In this document: positions 1 to 21,829 of the stretch, piece by piece | Numbering within the stretch: position 1 is the stretch's first letter | Layout: each line of letters begins with the position of its first letter | Source of the DNA: Candidatus Electrothrix yaqonensis | Lineage (GTDB): Bacteria; Desulfobacterota; Desulfobulbia; Desulfobulbales; Desulfobulbaceae | Assembly (NCBI GenBank): GCA_047651235.1 | Contig: CP178758.1 | Span: forward strand, 3,570,001 to 3,602,000 | Length of the DNA stretch: 32,000 nt | Direction of reading: 5' to 3' | Program-made: the position numbers and the translations under genes | Notes under the pieces: model-generated | Seen by the model: only the letters and a program-made list of their open reading frames with translations | What the model was told of the DNA's origin: nothing | Database searches by the model: none

Positions 1-1036
1 TGTAATGCCAAACCTACGAGCTATCATAGAGGATGGCGAGATCAATCTGAGGCCAGATGTGTATATACGTGACTACATCGGTGATGATGGTGATGCGCAT
101 AGTAGCAGTATTTCGGCTAGCCCTGATGTCATACTCGTTCCTGCAACGGTTGGTGATCCCAATGCAGCCTTTGGTCACGGTAGCGGCACAGAGAACGACA
201 ATACTCTGGGCCATGAGGCTACAGGTGGACAGGATAATTATATCTATGTCCGATGCCTTAACCGTGGTGGTGGAGACGGCACTAACACGACAGCTCGTAT
301 ATTCTGGTCACCGCCTTCAACACTGGTTACTCCCGATCTGTGGACACCAGTCGGCAACGTAACATTGTCAAATGTACCGATTGGGGAAATCCTTACCGTG
401 AGTGACGCCCTAACATGGCCAAACGCTGATATCCCAGCGCCCGGACACTATTGCTTTGTTGCGATCCTTGATCAGGCTCAGGACCCAGGTCCTACACCTG
501 TCGATTTCCTCGATTGGGACAATTTCCGATCATTTATCCGGGAAAACAATAATGTGACATGGCGTAACTTTAATGTGGTACCTAGCTCACCACCACCAGG
601 CAATAAAATGATACGTCAGCCATTCCTGATGGCCGGTGCTTTCGACAAAGCACGCAAAATGCGTCTAGAAGTCACAATGCGTCTGCCCAAAGATGCTAAG
701 GTGCAATTGAGAATACCTGAACACCTTGCTGAATGTATCCAACGCATACGCTCACCATTTACGAAGCAGGAGCGCAAAAAACGCACTGTTCTTGTGCCCC
801 TCAATCCACATGGGCGTACGAGATTTTGCGATGTCATTTTACCTGCAAAAGGAAGGTATGAGTTGGAGCTTCTGGTGAGCATTCCTAAAGAAGCAAGAAA
901 CCACTCCTACCTTGGTTGGGCCGCTCAGTTTGAGGAAGAGCAAGAGCTTGGTCGCGTTACCTGGCAATTTGCTTCAGAAGATGTGTTTGAAAAACGTGAT
1001 GCCCACCTTAAACGGTTTATGAAACGTAAATGCTGA
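1..1036 (+). CDS. Hypothetical protein, probably 5'-truncated by the window edge
   Basis: ORF 5..1036 stays open back to nt 2. The stretch DVYIRDYIGDDGD..SPDVILV..NYIYVRCLNRG resembles, from memory, the beta-rich extension that follows some subtilase domains. That is unverified, and no catalytic motif is visible. An attC-like site follows immediately. Confidence 0.55.
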   Translation, partial: VMPNLRAIIEDGEINLRPDVYIRDYIGDDGDAHSSSISASPDVILVPATVGDPNAAFGHGSGTENDNTLGHEATGGQDNYIYVRCLNRGGGDGTNTTARIFWSPPSTLVTPDLWTPVGNVTLSNVPIGEILTVSDALTWPNADIPAPGHYCFVAILDQAQDPGPTPVDFLDWDNFRSFIRENNNVTWRNFNVVPSSPPPGNKMIRQPFLMAGAFDKARKMRLEVTMRLPKDAKVQLRIPEHLAECIQRIRSPFTKQERKKRTVLVPLNPHGRTRFCDVILPAKGRYELELLVSIPKEARNHSYLGWAAQFEEEQELGRVTWQFASEDVFEKRDAHLKRFMKRKC

Positions 1037-1037
1037 A

Positions 1038-1126
1038 AAGCTAACAAGGCAAATGCACTCGGACGCCAAAAAGCGCCGCTCCTTCGTCGCTCTGCTTTTT
1101 GGCGTCGGTGATTTGCGGCGTTCCAA
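1038..1126 (+). other. attC-like recombination site
   Basis: It starts 2 nt after the TGA at 1034-1036, with ends AAGCTAAC (to 1045) and GTTCCAA (1120-1126). The arms GCAAATGCACTCGGACGCCAAAAAGC and GCTTTTTGGCGTCGGTGATTTGC pair, leaving three unpaired bases on the 5' arm. Confidence 0.65.
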
Positions 1127-1157
1127 AGGCGCGCCCCTTCGGGCCACGCCTTTGGAA
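1121..1157 (+). repeat. GC-rich 37-bp hairpin repeat, copy 1 of 3
   Basis: TTCCAAAGGCG-cgccccttcgggcca-CGCCTTTGGAA. The same sequence lies at 9273-9309, and an inverted copy lies at 12651-12685. All three directly abut the GTT end of an attC-like site. Confidence 0.8.
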
Positions 1158-1299
1158 TGCCGAGTTGACCGTACCGGCCCAACATTTGATTCCTGCGGCG
1201 CTGCGCGCCTTCGGAACCAAACGTTGGACTCGAAATTTTCCCGCAATAATCAACCGCAAGCGGCCATTATACCAGGAAAATTCCGGTCAACTCGGCATT
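1156..1299 (+). mobile_element. 144-bp MITE-like element with perfect 16-bp terminal inverted repeats, copy A
   Basis: AATGCCGAGTTGACCG ... CGGTCAACTCGGCATT. It is identical to copy C (18601-18744) and differs from copy B (9308-9451) by one base. Two internal hairpins are present (CCAACATTTGATTCC..GGAACCAAACGTTGG and ATAAT-caa-CCGCaaGCGG-cc-ATTAT). There is no coding capacity; the track ORFs across it are repeat artefacts. Confidence 0.75.
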
Positions 1300-1368
1300 G
1301 GGCGACGTGAAAAAGCACAGCATAGGAAGCTAAAGCTATCCACCTTAAAGTTATGGCAATATTAAAAT

Positions 1369-2439
1369 ATGAGAACTGCAATGCTGGAAAATCCCAAAGT
1401 ACTTGATTTTGAGTCAGTACAAAATAGAAATAAAATTGAACCATTAGCATCTCATCGGGTTGTCCAATTCATACGAGACGGCGCCACAATTTGTTTAGGT
1501 GATTCATTGAAAATGTATAAACATTGGCTACCACCTACAGTCATTATTTCTGATGGTCCATACGGTCTTGGTTCATATGAAGGAGACCCACATACACCTG
1601 AAAACCTTGCAGATTTTTACGCTGCTCACCTATCCGAATGGAGCAAATACTCCAAACCGAATACTACTTTATGGTTTTGGAACTCCGAACTTGGTTGGGC
1701 AAATGTGCATAATTCAATCCAACAAAACGGTTGGGAATTTCGAAATTGTCACATCTGGAATAAGGGTATTGGCCATATAGCCGGGAACGCAAATACTAAA
1801 ACTTTAAGAAAATTTCCGGTTATTACAGAAGTATGCGTACAGTATGTAAGGAAAGTTGAATTCTCTGTTAATGATCAATTTCTATCCATTAAGGATTGGC
1901 TTCGCCATGAGTGGCAAAGAACAGGTTTGCCTTTTTGTAAAACAAATGAAGCTTGTGGAGTGAAAAATGCTGCTACGAGGAAATATTTTACAAAATGTCA
2001 TTTATGGTATTTTCCTCCACCCCAGGCTTTTGAAATGATACAAAAATACGCAAATAAAAATGGAATCCCAGAAGGAAGGCCATATTTTTCAGTTGATGGT
2101 AAAAAGCCACTTACAAAAAAACAATGGGAGAATATGAGAGCAAAATTCTATTGTAAAGCTGGTATTACGAATGTTTGGTCAGAGCCTGCGGTAAGAGGAG
2201 GGGAAAGGCTTAAAAATAAAAGTAAATGTTTGCATATGAATCAAAAACCATTGAAATTATTGGAATTGATTATTGAATCTTCATCTGATAAAAATGATGT
2301 GATTTGGGAGCCTTTCGGCGGTCTCTGTTCAGCGACAATAGCTGCCCATAAATTAAGTCGTCGTGCATTCGCAGCAGAGATTAATAGTGATTACTTTGAT
2401 ATTTCTACTAAACGGTTGGACAATTATGACATCTTCTGA
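1369..2439 (+). CDS. DNA methyltransferase, N6-adenine/N4-cytosine type, beta-class motif order
   Basis: A motif IV-like VIISDGPYG lies N-terminal. C-terminal are NQKPLKLLELII and VIWEPFGGLCSATIAA (the SAM-binding FxGxG region). The gene overlaps the next one by 14 nt. Confidence 0.8.
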   Translation: MRTAMLENPKVLDFESVQNRNKIEPLASHRVVQFIRDGATICLGDSLKMYKHWLPPTVIISDGPYGLGSYEGDPHTPENLADFYAAHLSEWSKYSKPNTTLWFWNSELGWANVHNSIQQNGWEFRNCHIWNKGIGHIAGNANTKTLRKFPVITEVCVQYVRKVEFSVNDQFLSIKDWLRHEWQRTGLPFCKTNEACGVKNAATRKYFTKCHLWYFPPPQAFEMIQKYANKNGIPEGRPYFSVDGKKPLTKKQWENMRAKFYCKAGITNVWSEPAVRGGERLKNKSKCLHMNQKPLKLLELIIESSSDKNDVIWEPFGGLCSATIAAHKLSRRAFAAEINSDYFDISTKRLDNYDIF

Positions 2440-3346
2440 ACCAATAAGAGAAGTTCCTGCAACAGATTGGGATCATTATAAATTATTTAAAAGAGTTAAA
2501 GAGGCGATTTATAGTCTTCCTTTATATTTTCGAACCGAGACCAATATAGAAGGCATTTCTGCCACGGATATTTTTACATTGAACAGTGCTCTCGGTGCGA
2601 CAATTGAATCTCAGGTAGTTCAAACATTGAATAATATGAGGGCTCTTTGGGACCCGGATGAAGAATATGTAATGTACTCTTTCGTTCGTCAGTCTCAAAC
2701 GTTTCCTGACGTACTTTTAAAGAAAATTGGGGACTCATCTGATGTCGCTGAAATAATACTTGGTATAGAATTGAAAGGTTGGTATCTGCTAGCAAAAGAA
2801 GCAGAACCAAGTTTCCGTTTTCAAGTAACTCCTTCTGCTTGTGCGGTGCATGATTTAATAGTTGTTGTTCCATGGGCTTTAAATAACGTCATTTCTGGCT
2901 CTCCCAAAGTTTTCGTACCATACGTGGAATTTTCACGATATGCAGCTGCATATCGCAACTATCATTGGCAGTACCTACGACAAGCTAAATCAAACACAAA
3001 CATAAATATTCCCACAGATATTACACCCTATCCCAAAAAAAGTGATCCCATATCTGACAAACCTGTTTCTGACGGAGGCGGTAATTTTGGACGCTTTGCT
3101 CGAACCGGTCTGATGGATTCTTATTTACATAAGGCAAAAGAGGAACATATATGTGGCATTTCAGCTGAACATTGGTTAACATTTTTTAAAGTTTTCCAAG
3201 ATCAGAAAAGTATAACTGAGGTTCGTGATCAAATCAAAAAAATCAAAGCAAAAGTCCTTGCAAAAGTAGAAGGGGATGAAAATACTACCTTAATTAATAT
3301 TCAAGAAATATTACTATATATTGATAAAATAGTTGATGAACTTTGA
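2426..3346 (+). CDS. Putative type II restriction endonuclease (PD-(D/E)xK-like)
   Basis: The ATG at 2426 overlaps the methyltransferase stop (ATGACATCTTCTGA). The motif FPDVLL...ILGIELKGW fits PD...ExK. The track's GTG start at 2363 would lie inside the methyltransferase. Confidence 0.6.
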   Translation: MTSSEPIREVPATDWDHYKLFKRVKEAIYSLPLYFRTETNIEGISATDIFTLNSALGATIESQVVQTLNNMRALWDPDEEYVMYSFVRQSQTFPDVLLKKIGDSSDVAEIILGIELKGWYLLAKEAEPSFRFQVTPSACAVHDLIVVVPWALNNVISGSPKVFVPYVEFSRYAAAYRNYHWQYLRQAKSNTNINIPTDITPYPKKSDPISDKPVSDGGGNFGRFARTGLMDSYLHKAKEEHICGISAEHWLTFFKVFQDQKSITEVRDQIKKIKAKVLAKVEGDENTTLINIQEILLYIDKIVDEL

Positions 3347-3408
3347 TGCTCCACTTCGTTCCGCATTTTGAAAACCGGTTAGCTTGTCGTTGTGTTTAAG
3401 GATAATGT

Positions 3409-4656
3409 ATGTTCGATCAGTCTTTTACATATAAAACAATCTCATCGTTAATAACAAAGTCTGATTTTGCTAAAAATCCTGACTTAATAGATAAAAATTA
3501 TAAGTCTCAGATTGTAAACAGTTGCATTGAAAAATCATTAATTGGCTTTACAAGTAGTATTGATGTTGCAGTAAACCAGTTTAAAGGAAAACCAGTTTAC
3601 AAAGTTAAGTTGTTACAGGATGAGTTGTTATTAAGAAAAGCTTCAGAAAATATTAAAAGAATAACAAGTGTAAAACAACAGGATCGAGATAGTATAGTTA
3701 ATAATTTAATATGTTTTTTACGTGAAGGTGTCTCTTACAATATTTATAAATTGGATATCAAGTCATTTTACGAGTCAATAGATACTGTAGAGATGTTAAA
3801 AAATATGAAAAATGATATAACAATTTCTAAACCTACTATTCGCGTAATTGAAACTATATTAAAAAATATTGATGGTTCTGGTTTGAAGGGATTGCCAAGA
3901 GGATTACAGTTAAGTGCGACATTATCAGAGTTAATAATGCGGAAATTTGATAATTACTGCCAAAAACATAATGATATATTTTTTTTCTCTCGCTATGTTG
4001 ACGACATAATAATAATTACAAGTGCATTAGAGGAAGAGTCAGAATTTATAAACAACTTAGAAACTAAGATTTATAGGGGGTTAAAATTCAATTCAAAAAA
4101 AACTGATATTATTAATATTCCAGTTGTTAATAAAAATGACGCTGAAAAAGAATTTGAAAAATTTAAATATCTTGGCTATGAATTTACAATAAAAAATCCT
4201 TCCAAAAAAAATATTAGAGAAAAATACAGGGACGTATTTATTGACATATCTTCAAAAAAAGTTAAAAAAATTAAAACAAGAATAATTCGCGCTTTTCTTT
4301 CTTTTTGCGAAAACAAAGATTATGATTTACTTAAAGACAGAATTAAATTGATCACAGGAAATTATAGCATAATTGATAGGAAATCTGGAGTTAAGAGAAA
4401 AGCCGGAATCTTCTATAGTTATAATCATGTTTCAATCGAAACCTCTTCATCTATTAAAGATTTAGATATATTTCTGAAAAAAGCCCTATTGTCAAGAAAC
4501 AATAAAATCTCAAATGAAGTTAACAATATTTTATCATTAAGTGAAAGACGTAGACTTTTAAAAATTTCATTTAGTAATGGATTTAAAAGGAAAGTATTCT
4601 TTCATTTTCCCCAACAACGATTAGCTAAAATAATGCAATGTTGGGCCTATGAATAA
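3409..4656 (+). CDS. Reverse transcriptase, stand-alone UG/Abi-type (UG3-like by layout)
   Basis: RT motifs KLDIKSFYESI, GLPRGLQLSATLSELIM, FSRYVDDIIIIT, GLKFNSKKT and FKYLGYEF. An AAGGA ribosome-binding site lies 6 nt upstream of the ATG. No retron VTG motif and no group II maturase or X domain is seen. Confidence 0.85.
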   Translation: MFDQSFTYKTISSLITKSDFAKNPDLIDKNYKSQIVNSCIEKSLIGFTSSIDVAVNQFKGKPVYKVKLLQDELLLRKASENIKRITSVKQQDRDSIVNNLICFLREGVSYNIYKLDIKSFYESIDTVEMLKNMKNDITISKPTIRVIETILKNIDGSGLKGLPRGLQLSATLSELIMRKFDNYCQKHNDIFFFSRYVDDIIIITSALEEESEFINNLETKIYRGLKFNSKKTDIINIPVVNKNDAEKEFEKFKYLGYEFTIKNPSKKNIREKYRDVFIDISSKKVKKIKTRIIRAFLSFCENKDYDLLKDRIKLITGNYSIIDRKSGVKRKAGIFYSYNHVSIETSSSIKDLDIFLKKALLSRNNKISNEVNNILSLSERRRLLKISFSNGFKRKVFFHFPQQRLAKIMQCWAYE

Positions 4657-6625
4657 ACAAAATAAAGTAAATAAAAAAGATTACTATAGAATTTTATTGT
4701 CAGAAACTATTCCATCTGAGGTTCCATTTATTTTTTCAAACGATGGATTTTACAAAAATTGTATATTATATGAAAAAAGTAACTATCACCCGATTGAGCT
4801 TTTTCAGATCATTGTTATCAGTGAGCAAGAAGATAAAAGCACTATACCTCTAACTTACAAAATTAGAAAAGACGCCTTTTCATTGAGATCTTTATCACTT
4901 ATGCATCCTTATTCTCAATGGAAATATATTGATTTTTACAGTAATTACAGTGGCATTATTTGTTTTCATTGTTCCAGAAGTAAAGCATCCCTCCGTTCAC
5001 CACAAAAAATTGGCAGCTCTTTTTATGTAAAAAATGAAAATGAAAATATAAAAAAATATAAAATAGATTCAATTGATACTGAAGATGAAGATAAAACAAT
5101 AAAGCATCCTTCATCCTATTTTGCTTATCGGGGTGTTAACAGATTGCACAAGTTTTTTGATTCTAGTAAATACTTGAAGCTTGAAAAAAAGTACTCTTCA
5201 ATGTGGATGATTGATATTGCAAAGTGTTTTGATAGTATTTATACACACACTGTTTCATGGGCAGTAAAATAAAAATATTTTGCTAAAAACAGTATTAATA
5301 TCAAGTCGTCATTTGGACAAAAATTTGATACATTAATGCAACGAAGCAATGATAACGAAACAAATGGTATTATAATAGGTCCAGAAACAAGTAGAATATT
5401 TGCAGAAATTATATTTCAAGATGTAGATATAAAGACAATAGCTGCCTTAGAGAGTAAGCACAACATTCAATTTGATAAAGAATATACTTTTCGGAGATAT
5501 GTTGATGATACATTTATTTTTTCAGTAGACGAAAAGACTACCGTTTTAGTTGTTGAAGAATTAATAGATCAGTTATCCAAATACAATCTTCATATAAACG
5601 AAAATAAAATCGAAAAGCATAGTAGACCTTTTTATACTAAGCAATCAAGAATAATTCGGGCGATTAACTCAGAAATCAACATATTTTTTAAAAAGTTCAC
5701 AAAAAAAGAAATAATTGATAATATAAAATTGATTTTCCCAGAACCAGTATACAGAGTCAACAATCTCATAAACAGTTTTATCAACACAATTAAATCTATC
5801 TGTTCAGAAGCCGGGGGTGATTATAGTTTAGTTTCGGGATATATAATTTCGTCCTTATCTAATAGAATTATCAGGTTGATTGATATTGATCCTGCTCAGA
5901 TAAAAGATAAAAAAGAATATGGTATAAAATATACAAATGCATTTATTACTATATTAGAAACGATATATTTTTTTTATAGTGTTAAACCATCGGTTAATTC
6001 ATCGTATTCTCTTGGCAAATCTGTGGTTGTAAGCTATCGATTTTTTGAAAAGGAGTTTCCTGAGTATATGCCTACAATAAAGCAGAAAATATTTGAATTA
6101 ACAATTGATTTATTAAAACAAAATCAATTTTCAATAAAAACTCATAGAAAAAATCTGGTTCCTCTTGAAAAAATAAATATTATCCTTGCAATAAGCGAAA
6201 TGGGTGAGGATTATCTTTTATCAAATGAATTCATGAAAAAACTATTTAGTTTTAATAGCTTTTCCTTAAATTATTTTGAATTGATGTCTTGCTTATTCTA
6301 TATTAAAGATAATCAAGAATACAACGAGTTAAAAGAAAATATCGAATCAAATATTGAACAGAAGTTAAACGACTTGTCTGATATTGGAAGAAAGTCAGAG
6401 GTCGTTTATATATTTCTCGATAGTTTATCATGTCCATATTTTGATTTTGATTTTAAAGAGAACCTGCTAACCAGATTTTACAGTGAAAACAATAAAAGTA
6501 TACCTGACTTAAATGAGTTAAGAAATATTATAAATTTTATGGAAGATAATGAATGGTTCATTACTTGGAAAAATATTGATCTACTAAACATGTTAGAAAA
6601 AAAAGAATTAAAGACCACTTATTAA
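4649..6625 (+). pseudogene. Second reverse transcriptase (UG8/AbiA-like) interrupted by one in-frame TAA at 5270-5272
   Basis: ORFs 4649..5272 and 5336..6625 share a frame (687 nt apart), and the 21 codons between them have no stop. The upstream piece ends in RT motif 2 (MIDIAKCFDSIYTHTVSWAVK). After the stop the frame reads KYFAKNS..FGQKFDTLMQRSNDNETNGIIIGPETSRIFAEII, then FRRYVDDTFIFS and NLHINENK, followed by a roughly 330-aa helical tail. The start overlaps the RT1 stop (ATGAATAA). Confidence 0.75.
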
Positions 6626-6636
6626 GTATTTCATTT

Positions 6637-6811
6637 TGGGATAAGAGCTCAATATTTGCTCTACACTTTAGATTTTGTATAATTTTAGCAAGACTTAAAA
6701 TGTCATACTCTTTTCTGATAGTTATTTAAACGACGGTTTGGATAACACAAGAAACGAGAGCGGTTTTCCGCACACACATTATGCAATGAGGGCTCTTATC
6801 CCATTTTTTTT
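6637..6811 (+). ncRNA. Candidate structured ncRNA downstream of the RT pair
   Basis: A 12-bp closing stem (TGGGATAAGAGC at 6637-6648, GCTCTTATCCCA at 6792-6803) encloses about 143 nt containing small hairpins, for example GCGG-tttt-CCGC. A run of T8 (6804-6811) follows directly. There is no ORF, and the region sits between the RT2 stop and the next attC-like site. Confidence 0.45.
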
Positions 6812-6833
6812 AAAGCAATCACTATGAAACAAA

Positions 6834-6900
6834 ACACAACATTTGGTTGCAGGGGATTGCATCCGCTGCGCTCCTGCAACCCCTGAACCATGCGTTATGT
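6834..6900 (+). other. attC-like recombination site
   Basis: ACACAAC ... GTTATGT, where the reverse complement of the 3' end matches the 5' end at 6 of 7 positions. The arms TGGTTGCAGGGGATTGCA and TGCAACCCCTGAACCA pair with two bulged bases (G and A). The loop TCCGCTGCGCTCC is identical to the loop of the 7640-7711 site. Confidence 0.75.
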
Positions 6901-6915
6901 GTAAGAGAGAACAAT

Positions 6916-7605
6916 GTGATAAAGAAAATTTGGAAAGATCCAGTATTTAGCAAGCTTATAGCTGCTGCTTTGATTTGGGTATTAGGAATCTTATATCTTG
7001 AGCTGTCTCCTAAATTCCAAAACATTAATTGGTTGACAAAGATTAGTCTGCTTTTGATTCCAACATGTTTTCTTTTGTTATGGGGTGGTATATCGAGATT
7101 AATAAGAAAAATTAAAAAATCAAAAGTTCTTGTTTACCTAAGCACTGGTGGAACTTGTAGAGATCCAATTGCTAAGGTAATTACAGAACAACTTCTTAAT
7201 GAAAAAGGGCTTAACCTTAAATTAGAAATTAAAGCTATGGCAGTGAGTGACAGTTCTGATTTGAAAGTTTCATATGGAGCTAAATATGCCATCAAGTCAG
7301 TATATGGTAAAGATTTACTGTCTAATCATAAGTGTAGACAAATCACAAAGGATATATTTGAAAACGCAGATTTGATTATAGTAATGTCGCAAGATGTTCT
7401 CAAAATGCTTGAGTTGAAATTTCCTCAAAGAAACGAGAGAGTTTATTTATTCAAAGAGTTTTTTGGGCTTAGTGGAGACGTTACAAATCCATGGCCGGAT
7501 GGACAGGATGAAGAAACTTTGAAAAGGTATCTTAATTGCGTAAATGAAATAAAGAGTGTTTTGGTATCTTATTTCGATAAATTGGTTAATGCATTAGCAG
7601 TTTAG
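6916..7605 (+). CDS. Membrane-anchored LMW protein-tyrosine-phosphatase/ArsC-fold protein lacking canonical catalytic residues
   Basis: Two N-terminal hydrophobic helices are followed by VLVYLSTGGTCRDP, which aligns with VCxGNxCRSP, and by DLIIVMSQD and DVTNPW, which align with DLILTM and DPY. I propose the GTG start at 6916, preceded by AGAGAG, because the track's TTG start at 6847 lies inside the attC-like site. Confidence 0.65.
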   Translation: MIKKIWKDPVFSKLIAAALIWVLGILYLELSPKFQNINWLTKISLLLIPTCFLLLWGGISRLIRKIKKSKVLVYLSTGGTCRDPIAKVITEQLLNEKGLNLKLEIKAMAVSDSSDLKVSYGAKYAIKSVYGKDLLSNHKCRQITKDIFENADLIIVMSQDVLKMLELKFPQRNERVYLFKEFFGLSGDVTNPWPDGQDEETLKRYLNCVNEIKSVLVSYFDKLVNALAV

Positions 7606-7639
7606 TATTGATTCGAATACTGCTGAATAAAAAAAGAAC

Positions 7640-7711
7640 ACATAACAAATCACTGCACTGGATTTTTATTCCGCTGCGCTCCATAAAAACCAGTGAGTTC
7701 AGTCGTTATAC
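7640..7711 (+). other. attC-like recombination site
   Basis: ACATAAC ... GTTATAC. The arms CACTGGATTTTTAT and ATAAAAACCAGTG pair with one bulged A. The loop is TCCGCTGCGCTCC. Confidence 0.75.
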
Positions 7712-7729
7712 ATAAAAATTAAATAAAAA

Positions 7730-8275
7730 ATGAGTATTGGAACATTTATTTCATCAGCAATAGATAATTTAAACAAAAATAGATATGATGTCGCTTTAGC
7801 TCTTGTTTGCTCTGCTGTAGACGCGACAGCCTCAACGCAATATCCCGAAATCAAAGAAAATAATAAAAGATATAAAAAATTTTTGAAAAATAATATGCGT
7901 ATTATTACAACATATGGATTTCCGGGAATAACAGCCAGTGGAATCTCTATAAAATGTCATAATATCCCAGATATAAAAGCAGATTCCGAAGGACATACAG
8001 ACATTGAAAACATACTTTATCATATCATTCGGTGTTCTTTAATACATCAATGCGAAATCGATCAACGGATAGATTTCGTTCCTTATACTCACATAGGTGA
8101 TTTTGAAGATAAATTTAGGATTCCTGATAGTCTTGTGTTCGGCCTGCTTTTGTCAGTTGTTTTAGCAGAATGCAATAAACAAGAAAAACTCGATAAAGAT
8201 TACGTCTTAAATTTAAATGAAAAGTCTTTGAGTATAAATAAAATTTGGGGTAATTTTAAAAATTTTAATATATAA
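7730..8275 (+). CDS. Hypothetical protein (single-gene cassette)
   Basis: A 181-aa ORF bounded by attC-like sites on both sides, with no motif I recognise. Confidence 0.6.
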   Translation: MSIGTFISSAIDNLNKNRYDVALALVCSAVDATASTQYPEIKENNKRYKKFLKNNMRIITTYGFPGITASGISIKCHNIPDIKADSEGHTDIENILYHIIRCSLIHQCEIDQRIDFVPYTHIGDFEDKFRIPDSLVFGLLLSVVLAECNKQEKLDKDYVLNLNEKSLSINKIWGNFKNFNI

Positions 8276-8277
8276 AT

Positions 8278-8356
8278 GTATAACCAGTCATTTCACCTGA
8301 CCGTTACCCGCGCCGAAAACGGCGCGTGCACCGGCAGGTGAATTCCGATGTTAGCA
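8278..8356 (+). other. attC-like recombination site
   Basis: GTATAAC starts 3 nt after the TAA stop, and the site ends in GTTAGCA. The arms TTCACCTGACCG and CCGGCAGGTGAA pair imperfectly. The apical hairpin is GCGCCG-aaaa-CGGCGC. Confidence 0.7.
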
Positions 8357-8381
8357 TTCATAAAAAAAAGGAAACCGTCAA

Positions 8382-9143
8382 ATGGCAGGTTTTGTTTTAG
8401 TATGGGGTACTAGAATTAAAGAAGAACCTATTGGTTCAGTAGCGATTGATTGCCCGGCCTGTGGTGAAAGAGTTATTGCAGATACTTTTAGAGTCCTTAA
8501 AGCATCACATCTATATTTCATCAGAGGCAAATACAAAGAAGTCCAAAAGTATGTTAAGTGCCGTTTGTGCGCGGTCCCTTCCGAATTGCCTGAAAGGGCT
8601 ATACCAAAATCATCACCAAGTTCTAATATCATAACGCCATCAGCTAATTTTATAAAAGAGTCAAATCCAGAACTAATAAATACATCAACACCATCTTCTG
8701 ACGAAGATTTAAATATAACCGATGGAATTTCAAGACATGTGTTGTCATTATTTCAAGGGATATTTCAGGAGATAAATAAGCAAAAGTCATCAAGCAAAGC
8801 AGCCGGGAATGCAGAAGGTTTAATATTAATCGTATTGATGGCAGGGCTCATACTCTCTATGCTTTTATACGAAAAATTTAATAACCCTCAAATATTTTTA
8901 ACCACACTTTGGAGTTTAACGATCATTTTGGTGATCTTCTTTTATAAATTTCAATTTATCCTTATGTTCAAAGCTGCACACAATTATTTAAATCTTCATA
9001 TTCAACGATATCTCGAATTTAAAAAAATGACATTCCAAGATCTATTAGAGATGTCAACAGGGCTTAGAGGAGAATTTAAAATAGTAGCGAAATATTTATC
9101 TTGGGCAAAAACTAAGATTGAGCTTGTGAGGTACTCAGACTGA
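8382..9143 (+). CDS. Hypothetical zinc-ribbon plus transmembrane protein (single-gene cassette)
   Basis: An AAGGAAA ribosome-binding site lies 8 nt upstream. The N-terminal CPACG...CRLC is a four-Cys ribbon, and the C-terminal half has at least two hydrophobic helices (GLILIVLMAGLILSMLL, TLWSLTIILVIFFY). Confidence 0.65.
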   Translation: MAGFVLVWGTRIKEEPIGSVAIDCPACGERVIADTFRVLKASHLYFIRGKYKEVQKYVKCRLCAVPSELPERAIPKSSPSSNIITPSANFIKESNPELINTSTPSSDEDLNITDGISRHVLSLFQGIFQEINKQKSSSKAAGNAEGLILIVLMAGLILSMLLYEKFNNPQIFLTTLWSLTIILVIFFYKFQFILMFKAAHNYLNLHIQRYLEFKKMTFQDLLEMSTGLRGEFKIVAKYLSWAKTKIELVRYSD

Positions 9144-9152
9144 GAGCTAAAA

Positions 9153-9278
9153 TGCTAACCCAGCGCTCCACTGGACCGCAAGGGGCGGCTTTTCCAAAGT
9201 CTGTAGCGACTTTTAAAAATGGTGCTTTCTGCTGCCTTCTCTGGAAACCCTTGCGGCCCGTGAGCTTCACCGTTCCAA
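9153..9278 (+). other. attC-like recombination site (long form)
   Basis: TGCTAAC ... GTTCCAA, the same end sequences as the 1038-1126 site. The arms GCTCCACTGGACCGCAAGGG and CCCTTGCGGCCCGTGAGC pair with bulges. Confidence 0.65.
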
Positions 9279-9309
9279 AGGCGCGCCCCTTCGGGCCACG
9301 CCTTTGGAA
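9273..9309 (+). repeat. GC-rich 37-bp hairpin repeat, copy 2 of 3
   Basis: Identical to 1121-1157. The 180 bp at 9272-9451 equal 1120-1299 except for one T-to-C change. Confidence 0.8.
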
Positions 9310-9451
9310 TGCCGAGTTGACCGTACCGGCCCAACATTTGATTCCTGCGGCGCTGCGCGCCTTCGGAACCAAACGTTGGACTCGAAATTTTCCCGCAATA
9401 ACCAACCGCAAGCGGCCATTATACCAGGAAAATTCCGGTCAACTCGGCATT
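9308..9451 (+). mobile_element. 144-bp MITE-like element, copy B
   Basis: It has the same 16-bp terminal inverted repeats as copy A. The single difference from copies A and C is aataaCcaacc versus aataaTcaacc, within hairpin 2. Confidence 0.75.
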
Positions 9452-9490
9452 AGCCTCTTGAAAACAACTTTAATTTAAAATGGGTAAAAA

Positions 9491-12400
9491 ATGATTTCTA
9501 TCAATAGGATGAAAAAATTGTCAGTTATTATTTTGCTTGCAGAGCTGTCAAGTTTATTTGCCATACAGTCGCTGGCGCATGCAGAAGTCTTCCGAGCGAA
9601 GTTTAAAGCAGGCTCAGAGTATTTGGTTATAGAGATACTTGATGATGACTTAGCTCATTTTGAACTCTCAGCTATAGGAGATGGCCCGTCAACTGATGAG
9701 TCGCTTTATACTTCTCCAATGGTGCTGAAAACTGACTACAAAGGTGCCGCAAATGTATCTCATAATGACAACGTTATAGAAACCAGTGAGATGCGTCTTG
9801 AGATTGACAAGAGCAATCTGTGTGTCAAACTGATTGATAAAACAAAGGGAAATGCTCGTCTGACAACTGTTTGTCCGGTCGATCTGACTCAAGGGTTGAA
9901 AGGAATAAATATCGAACCGGGTCAAATACAGAATATATACGGTCTCGGCCAGAAATTTAAGCAGTTAGGTTCATCAGACGGCGACTGGATTAAGTTGGGA
10001 GTACGCGAGGGGAAGGATAATTGGGGGAACGGGTTCGAGGGTTTCCAGAATGCGGCGGTAGGTAATGTACAAATCCCGGTGTATTATGCTGTCGGCCCGG
10101 ACAATATCAACTATGCTCTCTTTATGGATAATGTCTACTGGCAAAGGTGGGATTTTGAAAAGAACTGGTGGGAAGCACGTATGTATGGAGACCAGTTGCG
10201 TTTTTACTTTATGACCGGCCAAGACTTACCTGATCTGAGATCGGACTTTATGGAACTGACAGGGAAACCGCCAGTTCCTTCTCGGCAATCCTTCGGTATG
10301 TGGGTATCTGAATTCGGCTATGACAATTGGGAACAGATTGATATTCTAAAAAAAGGCTTGAGAGAAGACAGATTTCCTTTAGACGGTTTTGTCCTTGATT
10401 TAAACTGGTTCGGCGGCATAAGTCCGAAGACCAACATGGGACGTCTCAATTGGGATCAGAATCAGGATGAATTGGTGCAAAACAATGCGTACTCTTTTCC
10501 CAACCCAAGTGAAAAAATTAAAGAATACGCTGAAGACAATATTCGAATCGCGGCAATTGAAGAATCCTATTTAGCCAAGACAGAGCCTCCTCTCAATACC
10601 TTCAAGGATATCCCTCAGGATTTCATGAGTTATCTGCGAAGTGACAACAAATGTGATCCGGCCAATCAGGTACCGGCCGAGACAGAAGGTTTTTGGGGTA
10701 AAGGACGAATGTTCGACTGGTCGGACCCGGTACTCGGTAAATGGATTCACAATAACCGTCGTTTTCCTGAGCTAGCAAAAAGAGGAATCAATACTCATTG
10801 GACTGATCTGGGCGAACCCGAGACCTTTAATCCTTCCGCCTGTTATGAAGGAGTGGAGACAACTGCTGCTGGCAAAAAAAGCGGACATGCAGATATTCAT
10901 AATATATATAATCTGCTTTGGAATAAATCTATTTGGGACGGTTACGTTGACAAGCAGGGCCAGGAGGATGAACTGGGTATAACCAATCCACGGCCTTTAA
11001 TTCTGACCCGTTCAGGGGCTGCCGGAACGCAGCGATACGGTGCAGCTATGTGGTCCGGGGATATTGCCTCTAACTTGGACTCCCTTGCTACACATTCAAA
11101 CGCTCAAATGCATATGTCTTTTTCCGGTATTGACTATTACGGTGCAGATATCGGAGGCTTTCGCCGAGAAGTACTGCCGGGTAACAGCAAAAACGAGCCC
11201 TTTGATATAAGCTATCAGGATGAAATGTATACCCAGTGGTTTGCCAACGGAAGCTGGTTCGATATCCCGGTCCGTCCTCATACTGATAATGAGTTTGGGA
11301 CAAACCGTGATAGCTGTAAAGACGATTTCGGTCACAGAAAATCGCCCTGTTATGAAACAGCTCCTAATCTTGTCGGCGATACTGTTAGCAATTTAGCCAA
11401 TATCCGCCAGCGTTACGAGCTGATCCCCTACTATTACTCCCTTGCTTACCGGGCTTACTTGCAAGGTGAACCTGTCATCCCGCCTCCAGTGCTCTATTAC
11501 CAAAATGACGAGAAATTAAGAGAGGCTGGCCACGAAAAGATGATCGGCAGAGATATTCTGGTCGGAATCGTCGCCAAGCATGGTGAGTATGATCGCAATG
11601 TATATCTGCCCACGGGCAAATGGGTGAACTACCACTCGAATGAATGGGTTGACAGCTCAGGAGAAGAAATAAAGGATGTGCCTGTTTATCGACAAGGAAT
11701 TTTTCGGCTTCCAACCTTTGTACATGCCGGAGCTATACTTCCCCAGATGTTTGTTGATAAAAATACTCAAGATGCCTTTGGACATCAATTTAAAGGAACC
11801 TCAGAACATGACGAACTGATTGTTCGCGTTTACGCAGATGAGACTCCATCGACGTTCACACTGTACGAGGATGATGGATTAACTCTAAATTATACGCAAA
11901 CCGGACGACCATTCTATCATTACAGAACAACTGTTCTTGAGCAACAACAGAATAAGAATAATGACACGGTAAAAGTGACTATCGGTCCGGCTGTTAACAG
12001 AAAGGGTGACAAGGAAGTGGCAGAATCGTTTACCGGAGCTGTTGATAGTCGAGCAAACATTGTCAAGTTGATCGTTAATAATGCAGAGGCAACAGCGGTC
12101 AGTCTTAACGGCACACCATTGACTGAGTATGAGTTTCAAAAAGATTTCGATGAAGCTGAAAGCGGCTGGCACAACACCGGTGATAATCTTATCCTGGCGA
12201 AATCTATAAAAATGGACGTCAAGAATATCACAAAAGTTTTTTCTTTTCAGCTGGAAGATGTCCCGGCAAAAACGTCAGTTAACTTTGTTTGCGATAACGG
12301 CTTTACAACTCCGGGTGAGAGTATCTATGTTGCAGGCAGTATTGCTGCCTTAGGTAATTGGGATCCTGGCATGGCGGTTAAGCTCGAACCGACCATTTAT

Positions 12401-12644: not shown

Positions 12645-12685
12645 GGGCATTTCAAAGGCGTGGCCCGAAGGGGCGCGCCTTTGAA
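12645..12685 (-). repeat. GC-rich hairpin repeat, copy 3 of 3 (inverted), followed by AATGCC on the minus strand
   Basis: The minus strand reads TTTCAAAGGCGCGCCCCTTCGGGCCACGCCTTTGAAATGCC, against TTCCAAAGGCG...CGCCTTTGGAATGCC at copies 1 and 2. It abuts the GTT end of the minus-strand attC-like site. Confidence 0.75.
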
Positions 12686-12803
12686 ACTAGGCGCTGCACC
12701 CGACCCGCGAGCACGCGCGTTTTTTGAAGTAGATTCATGCTCCCGTTCCGCTTCAGGCCATCGCGGTGATGCCGGGGCGGGGCGGGTGAGCTTGTTGTTA
12801 TCG
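12681..12803 (-). other. attC-like recombination site on the minus strand
   Basis: The minus strand reads CGATAAC ... GTTTCAA. The arms GCTCACCCGCCCCGC and GCGGGTCGGGTGCAGC pair with one bulged G and one mismatch. The TAA stop of the minus ORF lies inside the ..TAAC end. Confidence 0.65.
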
Positions 12804-13237: not shown

Positions 13238-16200
13238 ATGATACAAAAACTGTCTTTTTCAGCGTCCACCGAATTCTTGAATAACTTCAAACAAGTTGAG
13301 GTTCTTGATCAAAGAAAAAAATTCGAAGCAGTTCAAACTAACAATGGCCATACAATTTTTATTGGAATCGGAACAGATGACCAACTCTATGTGATTTACG
13401 AGCAGTCAGGTAAGAAGCATGGCTGGGTACAGATCCCTGTGACAAACAACTTGATGGGCAACGTCAAAAATTTTGCCGCATCACAAAACACCAAGGACGG
13501 TAATATTGATATAGCTGTGGTTATGACCGATCCATCAGACAACAACATGCTTTACCTGTCACTTGACCACCACTTTGACAATACGGACTGGATCACTCCT
13601 AATCTGAACTGGATAACAATCACAGATGATCGCTCCGAGCCGGAAAATCGAAACTTGGTAATTTCCGACGTGCATCTATCCCAGATGAAATCTGGTAACG
13701 AAACAATCATTGTCGATACGGTGACCACTAACAATCTGATTGAACGATATTGGATCAACAAGAGGGGGGCACCCTACTGGAACAAGCACAATCTGCAATT
13801 CGATCTGAGTGCCGGAACGGCTGATCACAGCCGTGTAGGTCGCAAATCCGGTGAGTTGGTCAACGGTATCTACACCATGGGTCGGGTAGGCCCTGCCCTG
13901 CAGTTTGTCTACACCCCGGTCTATAACGCCTTCAACCCGTCAATCGCGCCAAACCCCACCAATTTCAATTTCAATGCCACCAAGCTGACAGCGACCAATT
14001 CGGACTATGACACCTGCCCTGCCTTGTCAGGCGAGCAGGATGCCACCGACCTGTTTCTGGCAGGTGGCGACACGCTCTATTACCTAGCCGCAAAAGAACA
14101 AAACCAGATGGCGACGCCGGTGGAAATTCTAACAAGTGACCTGCTTTCCGATGTCAGGGATTTCCGCGTTTCCGTTAACTCCGAGAAGGTTGTTATCTGG
14201 GTGCTTAATGGACATGACCAGCTTTTCTATCTGTCCTGTCCGAAAAACGGGATTCATGACAAATCAAACTGGTCCATACCGCTACCTTTGCAAAGCAGCG
14301 TATCGGAAATGTCCCAATACATTTCCAATCAGGGTGGGGGCATTACCGTTTTTGCCAATGTTGGAAACGGCAAGGTTCTCAAGGGAATGCAGGACCCGGC
14401 TTCTTCCCGCTGGGTATTTGCTCAAATCGAACTTCCTGCACTGAAGCATGACACCAAGCCCATCAAGCAACTTTCCTTCACCACCCACATCCGGGTCCAA
14501 GATGAAAATAACAATCCGGCCCCCGCTGCCGATGTCGTTCTGAAGCCCGATGCATGCGTCAATGTTTACATCAACAACGCCTTCTATGCCTTGAGCGGGG
14601 ACTCACTGACGGTTAAGACCGATGCGACCGGTTCAGTCACCATTGTTGAATGGGTCGACACGATGCAAGGCACCAATTTCAACATTCACACAGGAGACCC
14701 GTCACAGGCGAAGGGACTAAATCCCCTGTCGAAGCCACTCGGAAAATTATCGCAGCTGAGTACTGCGGACGGTCTCAGTAACGCGCAGATCACAGCGGGT
14801 GACGGTACCAAATCCGCCCTGCTGAATACTGGGGTCACCGACGATCAAAAAAAGGCCCTAGCAGGCGTGATCAAGGACTTGAACATCGCGCACAATTCCA
14901 TGTCGGAATCCAAGGTAACAGTGGGCGCGAACGCTGGCTTTACCATCAATGCGGTTGCCACCCACAAATCCTCCTCGCCGGTCGATTACATCGAAACTTG
15001 GTGGGGAGATCTTGTGCAGGCCGTTAAGCACTTTGGCGAATATACGATTGAATTGATCAAGGATGCCTCCAAGGAAGCTTGGCACTTCGTGGTTAAAGTC
15101 GCTGGCAAGGTTTACGGCTTTCTGGTGGACACTGTCGAGAAGGTTGCCGGGGCACTTGAATCGATCTGGAACAAAATCGTTGAGGGTTGGGACAAATTCA
15201 TCGAATGGGTGAAGTTCATCTTTGAGTGGAAGGACATGGTCCACACTAAGGATGTGTTCAAACAGACCGTGCTGATCTTCTTCAACAAGATGGCCGAGGA
15301 TATCCAGAAGGCGCGGGTCGCCATGGATACAACGATAGACAATGGGGAAAGGGCGATCATGGCTTGGGCCAATGAAGACCCATCCTCAAGACCAAGCCTT
15401 GCCAGTTTGGACACACCCACCAATCAGTTGGCCAAAGGCAAGAAGGAACCGAAAGGGTCGAATTCCGCGCCAGCACAATTCATCCAGTCGCACTTCAAGA
15501 ATAATGTCAGCCGGTCAACAGCGACATTAGCGCCGCCCACAGTGGGGGTTGATCCAGACTGGTCAGGACTGACTGACATGTCGGACATCGTAAAGCGGGC
15601 TGAAGATGACATCACCGTGCTGCGTGATCACATCAAAAGCCTGTTTGTCCAGGCAGCCACTCAGGTAAATCCGGACATGCAAGCCATCGTGAAAAAAGTG
15701 ATTGCTGACATTACAATCCTTGCAATGGACCTTTTTAAAGGTGCAGCGGACAAGGTGCTTGATTTCCTGACCCTCCTGATCGAGGAAATCGTAGCACTGT
15801 TGGATACGCCACTCTACATCCCGATTCTGTCCGACATTTTGAAAGATGATTTTGGGATGGAACTCCCGTCGCTGTTGGAAATTCTCTGCTACGTTGCCGC
15901 CATTCCGACAACAATTGTCTACAAGATCGTCAATGGTAAAGCCCCGTTCTCGACCAATGATACGCTTTACAAAAACCTGACCAAGGCAAAAAGCTTTGCT
16001 GAGTTGCAGAAGCTTTACAATACCTCGGATGATCTCATCAAACTGGACGAGTCGGCACAGGCGGTGCTGTTTGAAACCACCTATTTTGCATCCGGTGTTT
16101 GCACCATCATTTACGGTTTTCTGGCCGTGATTGACGAGGAGACCGATGGCGGTGCCTCCAGTGCGCTCTCTACCCCCAAGACAATCCTGTCTGTCTTGTC

Positions 16201-16690
16201 CGGGGGCTCTGTGGGCATCGGAAGCCTGTTTGATCTTCCGATTGGCATCAAGAACAAGGAGATGAATACCTTTGCCTCCGTTGTTTCAAAAATCAACATC
16301 CTGCAGATCGCTGCGTTCGCGGTAGCACCGAAAGCGATTGCCAAAATTAAGGGTATAAGTGGTGAAGGTCCACTAAACCAATTGGGCAAGCAGGTGAATT
16401 ACGTCTCTGGTGGAGTGACAGCAATCCTTGCTTTTATCGGGCTTGTTCCCGCAGCCTATCACATTGTCGAGATCATTGCGGATGGGGAAGCACTAACGAA
16501 GGATGGTGTGCTTGGTATCGAAGATGCCACCCAGAACATCACCGGCAAGTTGGCAAAGATCGTGGGTTTTGCCGCTCTGGTGGATGCAGAGGAGGTAAGT
16601 AAGCAAATTCTGATCGCAGTTCAGGGCATTTTGTATGCAGGAACTGGGTTCATCCAAATTGAAGAATCTGCTCTCGAAGCAGTAGCATAA
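13238..16690 (+). CDS. Large hypothetical protein: repeat-rich N-terminus, helical Trp-rich middle, multi-pass hydrophobic C-terminus
   Basis: A 1150-aa ORF. The N-terminal roughly 400 aa show recurring strand-like blocks (QLYVIYEQ..GW, NMLYLSLD, TLYYLAAK, QLFYLSCP), suggesting a beta-propeller. Then come WWGDLVQAV..WDKFIEWVKFIFEWKD and several hydrophobic segments (LLEILCYVAAIPTTIVYKIV, FASGVCTIIYGFLAVI, VSGGVTAILAFIGLVPAAYHIV). No family was recognised. Confidence 0.75.
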   Translation: MIQKLSFSASTEFLNNFKQVEVLDQRKKFEAVQTNNGHTIFIGIGTDDQLYVIYEQSGKKHGWVQIPVTNNLMGNVKNFAASQNTKDGNIDIAVVMTDPSDNNMLYLSLDHHFDNTDWITPNLNWITITDDRSEPENRNLVISDVHLSQMKSGNETIIVDTVTTNNLIERYWINKRGAPYWNKHNLQFDLSAGTADHSRVGRKSGELVNGIYTMGRVGPALQFVYTPVYNAFNPSIAPNPTNFNFNATKLTATNSDYDTCPALSGEQDATDLFLAGGDTLYYLAAKEQNQMATPVEILTSDLLSDVRDFRVSVNSEKVVIWVLNGHDQLFYLSCPKNGIHDKSNWSIPLPLQSSVSEMSQYISNQGGGITVFANVGNGKVLKGMQDPASSRWVFAQIELPALKHDTKPIKQLSFTTHIRVQDENNNPAPAADVVLKPDACVNVYINNAFYALSGDSLTVKTDATGSVTIVEWVDTMQGTNFNIHTGDPSQAKGLNPLSKPLGKLSQLSTADGLSNAQITAGDGTKSALLNTGVTDDQKKALAGVIKDLNIAHNSMSESKVTVGANAGFTINAVATHKSSSPVDYIETWWGDLVQAVKHFGEYTIELIKDASKEAWHFVVKVAGKVYGFLVDTVEKVAGALESIWNKIVEGWDKFIEWVKFIFEWKDMVHTKDVFKQTVLIFFNKMAEDIQKARVAMDTTIDNGERAIMAWANEDPSSRPSLASLDTPTNQLAKGKKEPKGSNSAPAQFIQSHFKNNVSRSTATLAPPTVGVDPDWSGLTDMSDIVKRAEDDITVLRDHIKSLFVQAATQVNPDMQAIVKKVIADITILAMDLFKGAADKVLDFLTLLIEEIVALLDTPLYIPILSDILKDDFGMELPSLLEILCYVAAIPTTIVYKIVNGKAPFSTNDTLYKNLTKAKSFAELQKLYNTSDDLIKLDESAQAVLFETTYFASGVCTIIYGFLAVIDEETDGGASSALSTPKTILSVLSGGSVGIGSLFDLPIGIKNKEMNTFASVVSKINILQIAAFAVAPKAIAKIKGISGEGPLNQLGKQVNYVSGGVTAILAFIGLVPAAYHIVEIIADGEALTKDGVLGIEDATQNITGKLAKIVGFAALVDAEEVSKQILIAVQGILYAGTGFIQIEESALEAVA

Positions 16691-16720
16691 TCTAACTCGT
16701 ATATTTTGAAGGTAAATGAA

Positions 16721-18421: not shown

Positions 18422-18600
18422 GGTATCCGCATGTTAAGTGACTGTATAAAGATAGTTTATCCGATTCGGAATATCTCTGTCCTGTCGGCTTCTGAGGATT
18501 TACCGGCCGGGAGCGGGTATTGCATGAAAACACTACCGTTCCTCTCCTGTCCGGCTCAGTGAACGCACTTTTTATGCGACTGACTGTATCTTAACTTAAT

Positions 18601-18744
18601 AATGCCGAGTTGACCGTACCGGCCCAACATTTGATTCCTGCGGCGCTGCGCGCCTTCGGAACCAAACGTTGGACTCGAAATTTTCCCGCAATAATCAACC
18701 GCAAGCGGCCATTATACCAGGAAAATTCCGGTCAACTCGGCATT
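18601..18744 (+). mobile_element. 144-bp MITE-like element, copy C (without the GC-rich hairpin)
   Basis: Identical to copy A. Its left flank is cttaacttaat rather than the hairpin, which shows the 144-bp unit is separable from the hairpin. Confidence 0.75.
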
Positions 18745-19807: not shown

Positions 19808-20108
19808 CTACTTTTTGCGCTCCAGTCACCATATTGCGGGCAAATTCTGCGGAAGTAACATCCTTGCCTCCGGATTTTTCCTCCTTGAAATCATTTGTTA
19901 ATTTATTTATATCAACAACCCGTTTTTCCCCATTTCTCCAGTGAATATCGAATTCCTTTCCACCGACCCGGACAAAATAATTGCTGGCCCCGTCATCATT
20001 CACTCTCTGCTTCAACCCGAAATGCAGAGTTTCAGGCGGTTGCTGAACAGATATTTTTTCAAATTCGCCTGCAAATAAACAGAGCATAATTTCGTCTGAG
20101 AATCGCAT
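19788..20108 (-). CDS. Hypothetical protein (106 aa), last gene of the four-gene operon
   Basis: Its start overlaps the upstream stop (TAATG). Its 3' end runs into the aspS remnant, so the C-terminus may not be native. Confidence 0.5.
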
Positions 20109-21811: not shown

Positions 21812-21829
21812 GAGCTGTCTGTTCAGTTC

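Follow-up and report, generated by a model that had tools for sequence, protein, structure and literature searches.

DRT3, a defense system that combines two reverse transcriptases (RTs) of the UG3 and UG8 families with a noncoding RNA (ncRNA), was discovered in 2020. Its mechanism and structure were published in 2026 (PMC13174585; PMC13314766). Here we describe a stretch of 32,000 nucleotides (nt), referred to throughout as the window (contig CP178758.1, positions 3,570,001 to 3,602,000), from the cable bacterium Candidatus Electrothrix sp. YB6 (Desulfobulbales), whose genome is a metagenome-assembled genome (MAG) with a contig of 3.74 Mb. We propose, with a probability of about 0.9, that the window carries a canonical DRT3 operon of the order drt3a-drt3b-ncRNA, that this operon is part of a low-GC island gained by horizontal transfer, where a restriction-modification (R-M) pair adjoins it, and that it is most likely inactive owing to a TAA codon within drt3b. 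An initial annotation of the same DNA had already put forward a DRT3 system with UG3, UG8 and an ncRNA, and that assignment is borne out by PADLOC, by the NCBIfam equivalogs, by the solved complex 9z6y, by synteny, by an ACACAC template and by a covarying RNA. Its suggestion that the locus may be a divergent or new variant does not hold, as both RTs are equivalog-level orthologs and the first of them already stands in GenBank as Drt3a. The locus is thus an ordinary member of a characterized and already known system.

The described systems with which the locus is best compared come from Escherichia coli. One has been solved as a 6:6:6 complex of Drt3a, Drt3b and ncRNA (PDB 9z6y/9z6z; Deng et al. 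2026, in the account given by the review PMC13314766). In the other, EcoDRT3 (Wang et al. 2026, PMC13174585), the active sites of both RTs are needed for defense, and an ACACAC sequence in the ncRNA was shown experimentally to be the template for poly(dT-dG), with the stem-loop next to it forming the boundary of reverse transcription. EcoDRT3b starts DNA synthesis from Y666 as the primer and alternates dC and dA without a template, for which E22 serves as the dA gate, R241 as the dC switch and R71 for stacking, while D182, I183 and D278 are ligands of the metal and the contacts to the sugars come from F187, Y276 and V277 (PMC13174585). Both E. coli studies place the ncRNA in cis, 3' of drt3b.

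Assignment of the two reverse transcriptases

The first gene, drt3a (UG3, a Class 2 RT; 3409-4656, + strand), is an ATG-initiated open reading frame (ORF) of 415 aa with an intact YVDD in the sequence SRYVDDIIIIT. It is followed on the same strand by drt3b (UG8, a Class 1 RT; 4649-6625), which has 658 codons plus the stop, is interrupted by one internal TAA, and contains the motifs RRYVDDTFIFS and GIIIGPETSRIFAEI. The two genes share the 8 nt ATGAATAA (4649-4656, + strand), in which the stop of drt3a overlaps the start of drt3b, and this arrangement, as read from the DNA, is a predicted translational coupling of the two genes. The lengths, the YVDD motifs, the GIIIGPETSRIFAEI-type motif and the overlap given in the initial annotation were all recovered. 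Among the closest relatives the overlap is again ATGAATAA in two loci (L003 and L083) and ATGAATAG in a third (L084).

Both proteins match the DRT3 families over their entire length. Drt3a aligns with the PADLOC model PDLC02175 at E=3.6e-141 (with residues 1-414 covering 1-416 of the 417 model positions), scores 399.6 bits against the NCBIfam equivalog NF041747 (cut-off 200; model positions 1-412 of 412 covered), and is 35% identical to the Drt3a chain of the solved complex (9z6y_A, E=7e-75). Its sequence is that of GenBank XOF33602.1, which is titled "antiviral reverse transcriptase Drt3a". The family scores of Drt3b were computed on the conceptual full-length translation across the TAA, with E=2.4e-220 against PADLOC PDLC02176 (residues 2-658, full length), 658.6 bits against NF041748 (cut-off 350), and 41% identity to the Drt3b chain 9z6y_H (E=4e-147, 495 bits). 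The match to the SUMO-fused EcoDRT3b structure 26cz is lower (26cz_A, E about 1e-88, about 300 bits). Running defense-RT models on both proteins, the check that the initial annotation had proposed, therefore returns Drt3a and Drt3b.

These scores bear directly on the possibility that two unrelated RTs, of Abi/UG, retron or group II type, ended up side by side by accident and that the hairpin 3' of them is a terminator with no relation to either. The Pfam result by itself would allow this, since both proteins match the generic RVT_1 domain and nothing more specific. However, the next-best PADLOC families, UG17 for Drt3a (E=1.2e-26) and Drt6 for Drt3b (E=3.4e-39), trail the DRT3 models by more than 100 orders of magnitude, and the group II RT model gives 69.7 and 32.6 bits for the two RTs against a cut-off of 300. 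In addition, the gene order is conserved and the loci share a homologous downstream RNA (see below), so that the probability of a chance pair is close to nil. A retron or group II intron RT was considered separately and rejected, with the retron Ec107-like RT model matching Drt3a at E=2.2e-12 versus 3.6e-141 for the Drt3a model, and Rfam found neither a retron RNA nor a group II intron in the window. The absence of retron and group II features described in the initial annotation agrees with this outcome. A Cas1-RT reading was likewise rejected, as the RTs of the window match the Drt3a and Drt3b models.

DRT3 is found in hundreds of species, and a single scan gave 568 confirmed loci. Our survey drew on 83 loci, 80 from species-representative genomes and three from metagenome contigs. 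When the window Drt3a was used as a tblastn query, 82 of these 83 gave a homolog whose end lies only a few nucleotides from the start of drt3b, and the lone exception is a locus cut by a contig end. This search was used in place of a cruder filter for an upstream RT (an ORF of more than 300 aa with Y[VAIL]DD), which recovered 47 of 76 loci. Loss of synteny and placement of the RTs in unrelated families had been named in the initial annotation as observations that would speak against a DRT3 assignment. Both points come out in favor of DRT3, and the drt3a-drt3b pair is kept almost without exception. In the window, too, the two genes adjoin in this order on one strand, each with its YVDD.

The conservation of Drt3b extends to the residues that define its activity. 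In a phmmer alignment to 26cz, with the tag offset of 108 taken into account, E22, R71, D182, F187 and R241 of EcoDRT3b correspond to E24, R80, D189, F194 and R249 in the window, the segment Y276-D279 corresponds to Y284-V285-D286-D287, and the priming tyrosine Y666 corresponds to Y658, the final residue of the window protein. Among the 26 sequences of our Drt3b alignment, in which the homologs are 40-76% identical, R80, D189, F194, R249, Y284, D286 and D287 are invariant, and conservation is 90% or more at E24, V285 and Y658. By this alignment, the predicted product of the uninterrupted frame keeps all of the published functional residues of Drt3b.

The downstream RNA and the proposed mechanism

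The third component of the operon, the ncRNA, was located at 6634-6815 (+ strand), the extent of the only match in the window to a covariance model, R1 (171.8 bits). Its closing helix, P1, consists of 13 bp (6638-6650 with 6790-6802, + strand) and encloses 165 nt (6638-6802), which is the stem-closed noncoding region of about 165 nt that had been noticed 3' of drt3b in the initial annotation. The RNA folds with a minimum free energy (MFE) of -56.8 kcal/mol, versus -31.1 +/- 3.9 for dinucleotide shuffles (z = -6.7), and none of 200 shuffles did as well. A GCGG-UUUU-CCGC hairpin, helix 7 (6760-6771, + strand), stands directly 5' of the template 5'-ACACAC-3' (6772-6777, + strand; CACACACA at 6771-6778), and the latter is unpaired in both the MFE and the centroid folds. 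P1 is followed by an A and a tract of eight U (6803-6811, + strand), which from its sequence is likely to be an intrinsic-terminator-like 3' end of both the operon and the ncRNA, and T-runs follow P1 in the closest relatives as well. A simple terminator scan did not call the P1/U8 element, the loop limit of the scan being 3-8 nt, and a simple promoter scan was uninformative in such AT-rich DNA (50 matches versus 39 +/- 6 expected).

The template is conserved well beyond the window. Of 77 other testable genome loci, 76 carry an ACACAC at 103-202 nt past the end of drt3b, as do all three metagenome loci, whereas the chance expectation is approximately 0.08 occurrences per 320 nt. The structure of the RNA was examined with a seed alignment of the five closest sequences, the consensus of which has seven helices, namely P1, one further stem, a hairpin on the 5' side, an arm of three helices and the pre-template hairpin, with a compensatory change in 25 of 51 pairs. 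The model R1 was built from this seed and gave 22 full-length matches, the window and 21 other loci, all of them directly 3' of drt3b on the same strand and including loci of Pseudomonas, Ewingella, Undibacterium, Caballeronia, Thiorhodococcus and Marinobacterium. When these 22 RNAs are aligned, 89.3% of the cells are paired, versus 57.5% in shuffles and 40-45% with slid partners; both sides have changed in 49 of 51 pairs, and on no measure does any of 500 shuffles attain the observed value. Across the 22 RNAs, helix 7 is 96.3% paired, with compensatory changes in three of its four pairs, and directly after it comes CACACAC, unpaired and the sole stretch that is at least 90% conserved. As R1 recovers the RNA in 22 of approximately 80 loci at E<=0.01, the ncRNA diverges rapidly outside of the CACACAC block, P1 and the pre-template helices. 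Rfam 15 has no family for either the ncRNA or the repeats that flank the island, in a scan of all 32,000 nt at gathering thresholds and in one of 900-9600 at E<=1, the sole match, P35 (E=0.13), being at chance level. The template, its flanking hairpin and P1 are conserved from the Enterobacterales to the Desulfobulbales.

Several points weigh against this part of our interpretation. The alignment of the 22 RNAs was fitted to the structure of the model, which biases the pair counts upward, and the ends of the ncRNA and the promoter are predictions. Moreover, activity, products and a role in defense would be extrapolated from orthologs that are 35-41% identical.

With the mechanism taken from the E. 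coli systems (PMC13174585; Deng et al. 2026, to the extent covered in the review PMC13314766) and the sequence features from the window, an intact operon of this type would function as follows. Its transcript would end in a structured RNA of approximately 170 nt, to which Drt3a would bind in order to copy the unpaired 5'-ACACAC-3' (6772-6777) over and over into poly(dT-dG), with the hairpin at 6760-6771 acting as the stop that limits read-through by Drt3a. Drt3b, as a hexamer and with no nucleic-acid template, would prime from its C-terminal tyrosine, Y658 in the window, and synthesize poly(dC-dA), with its own side chains serving as the template, E24 and R249 together with R80 being the predicted dA and dC gates. 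The two strands would then anneal to form double-stranded poly(GT/AC) DNA (dsDNA). On the E. coli model, RecBCD would degrade this DNA for as long as no phage inhibitor, Gam for example, blocks RecBCD; once one does, poly(GT/AC) would accumulate and lead to abortive infection. From the operon as sequenced, the expected Drt3b products would be an N-terminal fragment of 207 aa and possibly a fragment of 429 aa that starts at M229.

The internal stop codon of drt3b

Direct translation of 4649-6625 places an in-frame TAA at codon 208 of drt3b (5270-5272, + strand), and an ORF finder accordingly splits the gene into one ORF of 207 aa (4649-5272) and one of 429 aa (5336-6625). The residue of 25 aligned homologs at this position is S, T, E, N or D, between a near-invariant K207 and an invariant K209, and the closest homolog, the 76%-identical Drt3b of a Desulfobacterium MAG, has TCT. 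Recoding of the codon is not indicated, because drt3a and drt3b themselves both end in TAA as their normal stop. The uninterrupted drt3b frame that a working DRT3 needs is consequently missing, a result that concerns function and not family identity. Because both RT active sites are needed for defense in E. coli, the nonsense codon should abolish function here, and from its sequence the DRT3 system of the window is most likely inactive. If the locus is DRT3, drt3b is quite probably a recent pseudogene, and the inactivation would be recent because drt3b has no second lesion. The TAA had been seen in the initial annotation, and its consequence as a pseudogene merits more weight than it was given there.

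The DRT3 system might nevertheless be intact and active if the TAA were a mistake of sequencing or of the consensus, or else an allele carried by a minority of an enrichment culture. The remainder of drt3b is undamaged, with no frameshifts and with all invariant residues present, the stop is located within an A-rich run (GTAAAATAAAAATAT), the genome is a MAG, and internal stops are rare in the family. Only one of 76 other complete DRT3 loci has one, at codon 417 of drt3b in a MAG of Rheinheimera texasensis (L080:4001-5983), and inactivation of drt3b may recur now and then, if rarely. On the other side, a separate Logan assembly of SRR31704081 has the same base: its contig SRR31704081_73098 (5,653 nt) is 100% identical to positions 1270-6922 of the window, TAA included, and a gene caller likewise divides drt3b on it into pieces of 207 and 429 aa. 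Furthermore, the change is a substitution within the run and not an error of homopolymer length, and an intact, near-identical allele was found neither among proteins nor in the JGI metagenomes, where a search for near-identical alleles across codon 208, with the stop given as NNN, had no matches. We thus regard an intact system as unlikely. The pseudogene reading is itself weakened in that the codon might be erroneous or belong to a minority allele, that the Logan contig may share the read set of the MAG and so is not truly independent, and that database proteins offer no nearer intact allele for comparison than the 76%-identical homolog with TCT at codon 208.

A second way in which function might be retained is that Drt3b works in spite of the TAA, either through low-level readthrough or through reassembly of residues 1-207 with a fragment restarted at M229, whose codon at 5336 is the first in-frame ATG 3' of the stop. 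Both fragments are otherwise sound, with 239 and 378 bits against the Drt3b model, and the catalytic D189 lies on the N-terminal part while YVDD lies on the C-terminal part, so that selection would keep both pieces because neither could work alone. However, a restart at 5336 would drop residues 208-228 with the invariant K209, K213, F222 and D227, inspection of the sequence upstream of 5336 revealed nothing resembling a Shine-Dalgarno sequence, and a split at codon 208 occurs in no other DRT3 locus. Readthrough is disfavored in turn by the codon context, as TAA followed by an A is an efficient terminator of translation. A Drt3b that functions across the stop or in two pieces is therefore very improbable, and a recently inactivated drt3b remains the preferred explanation.

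How such an inactivation came about may bear on the biology of DRT3. E. coli cells that lack RecBCD cannot maintain the system. Were Ca. Electrothrix to have no dsDNA exonuclease of the RecBCD type, constitutive synthesis of poly(GT/AC) would be lethal after horizontal acquisition of the operon, and a single knock-out of the template-free enzyme, Drt3b, would provide an escape route. That the nonsense codon is the trace of selection against autotoxicity of this kind, and not of mere random decay, is a long shot, and yet if true the locus would be a natural test of the RecBCD-guard model. The lone nonsense codon in an otherwise pristine drt3b represents a possible natural silencing of a constitutively active and potentially autotoxic defense system.

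Genomic setting and comparison with known systems

The DRT3 genes are part of a low-GC block of seven genes (approximately 1369-9143), and the GC content is 27-30% over 4001-7000 versus 45-59% in most of the window, which accords with the strongly AT-rich locus described in the initial annotation. An exact-sequence look-up matched several proteins of the window, Drt3a among them, to GenBank XOF33600-XOF33607. Immediately 5' of drt3a and on the same strand is a type II R-M pair, with coordinates taken from gene calls on the Logan contig, that comprises an N6/N4 DNA methyltransferase (1369-2439; Pfam N6_N4_Mtase E=1.2e-19, PADLOC MTase_II E=3.7e-26) and a putative type II restriction endonuclease (2426-3346) with a weak match to PADLOC REase_II (E=2.8e-7). 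The R-M neighbor reported in the initial annotation is thereby confirmed. Three further genes on the + strand lie 3' of the ncRNA, and they encode a low-molecular-weight phosphotyrosine-phosphatase-like protein with a hydrophobic N-terminal extension of approximately 95 aa (6847-7605), a protein of 181 aa with no family (7730-8275), and a protein of 253 aa with an N-terminal CxxC...CxxC and hydrophobic segments (8382-9143), which falls into a common 90%-identity cluster with a protein from Desulfobacter sp. None of the three matches a PADLOC model, and they may be unrecognized defense genes.

The low-GC island is bracketed by two copies of a structured repeat of approximately 190 nt, the left one, of family D1, at 1099-1299 and the right one, 95% identical to it, at 9251-9451; a repeat search with alignment placed a third copy at 18544-18744 (all + strand), and the hairpin part alone occurs in inverted orientation at 12646-12687. 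Each repeat has two parts, a perfect hairpin rich in GC (GTTCCAAAGGCG...CGCCTTTGGAAT) and, after it, an element that has inverted termini of approximately 15 nt (GCCGAGTTGACCG...CGGTCAACTCGGC), and it folds at -90.6 kcal/mol (z = -5.7). The copies at 18544 and 12646 sit among chromosomal genes of normal GC content, and the repeat core had no matches in the JGI metagenomes. The repeat could be a miniature inverted-repeat transposable element, a small RNA family or a recombination hot-spot of Electrothrix, and the bracketing copies could be the sign of a hot-spot for insertions, or of a mobile element, not described in cable bacteria before.

Two direct repeats of 95% identity on either side of a low-GC block are also what might be expected if the R-M and DRT3 genes formed a gene cassette of an integron with attC sites at its ends, and the initial annotation had indeed called the locus an integron-like cassette. 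That description does not stand up to the details. No integrase was found among the larger ORFs of the window that were scanned, where one outside of the window is possible, and the repeats, at approximately 190 nt, are longer than attC sites (about 57-141 nt, with R''-L''/L'-R' cores) and differ from them in architecture. They are also 8-9 kb apart, copies occur between core genes at normal GC, and the block between them contains seven genes rather than one. We consider a cassette hardly credible, and the locus is instead a defense island beside dispersed structured repeats.

Related DRT3 loci have their own neighbors. In one metagenome relative (L083) the adjoining genes encode IS3-family transposases, in another (L084) they form a MazE/PIN toxin-antitoxin pair, and on the contig of a 55%-identical JGI relative (P0003) they are BrxC/BrxD-like, helicase and DUF3800 genes; all three settings are typical of defense islands. 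Elsewhere in the window, 13238-18421 (+ strand) and 20108-24916 (- strand) encode large proteins, of which those of 1150, 571 and 566 aa have no family assignment and one of 1027 aa is a DUF6603 protein (E=2e-142).

The nearest relative of the DRT3 operon is that of the Desulfobacterium sp. MAG GCA_030145245.1 (L002/L003), in which Drt3b is 76% and Drt3a 70% identical. It shares the ATGAATAA overlap, an ncRNA that scores 174.5 bits, the order GCGG...CCGC-ACACACA and the U-tract. It differs in that its drt3b is intact and in that its neighbors are glycine-cleavage/lipoate genes on one side and LysR regulators on the other, an adjoining R-M pair being absent.

Compared with the E. coli DRT3 of 9z6y/9z6z, both proteins of the window align from end to end, the YVDD is present in each, Drt3b terminates in a tyrosine and an ACACAC ncRNA lies downstream. 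The differences are the cable-bacterium host, the AT-rich locus and the TAA in drt3b. EcoDRT3 (Wang et al. 2026, PMC13174585; 26cz) is the more distant of the two characterized orthologs, at about 300 bits versus 495 for 9z6y_H, and it nonetheless corresponds in its gate, stacking, priming, metal-binding and sugar-contacting residues, in the unpaired ACACAC beside a stem-loop, and in an ncRNA in cis 3' of drt3b. Since the DRT3 mechanism is solved and Drt3a is already labeled as such in GenBank, the finding itself adds little, and the value of the locus is as a record of a DRT3 operon in a cable bacterium, by an R-M pair in a low-GC island.

Beyond DRT3, the closest described systems are DRT10 (UG17), the family that is second-best for Drt3a, and DRT9. 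With these the DRT3 operon shares a Class 2 RT, a short, confined ncRNA template beside a stem-loop and a product of tandem-repeat DNA (PMC13174585). DRT10 and DRT9 are unlike it in having a single RT and other effectors, whereas DRT3 adds a template-free RT for synthesis of the complementary strand.

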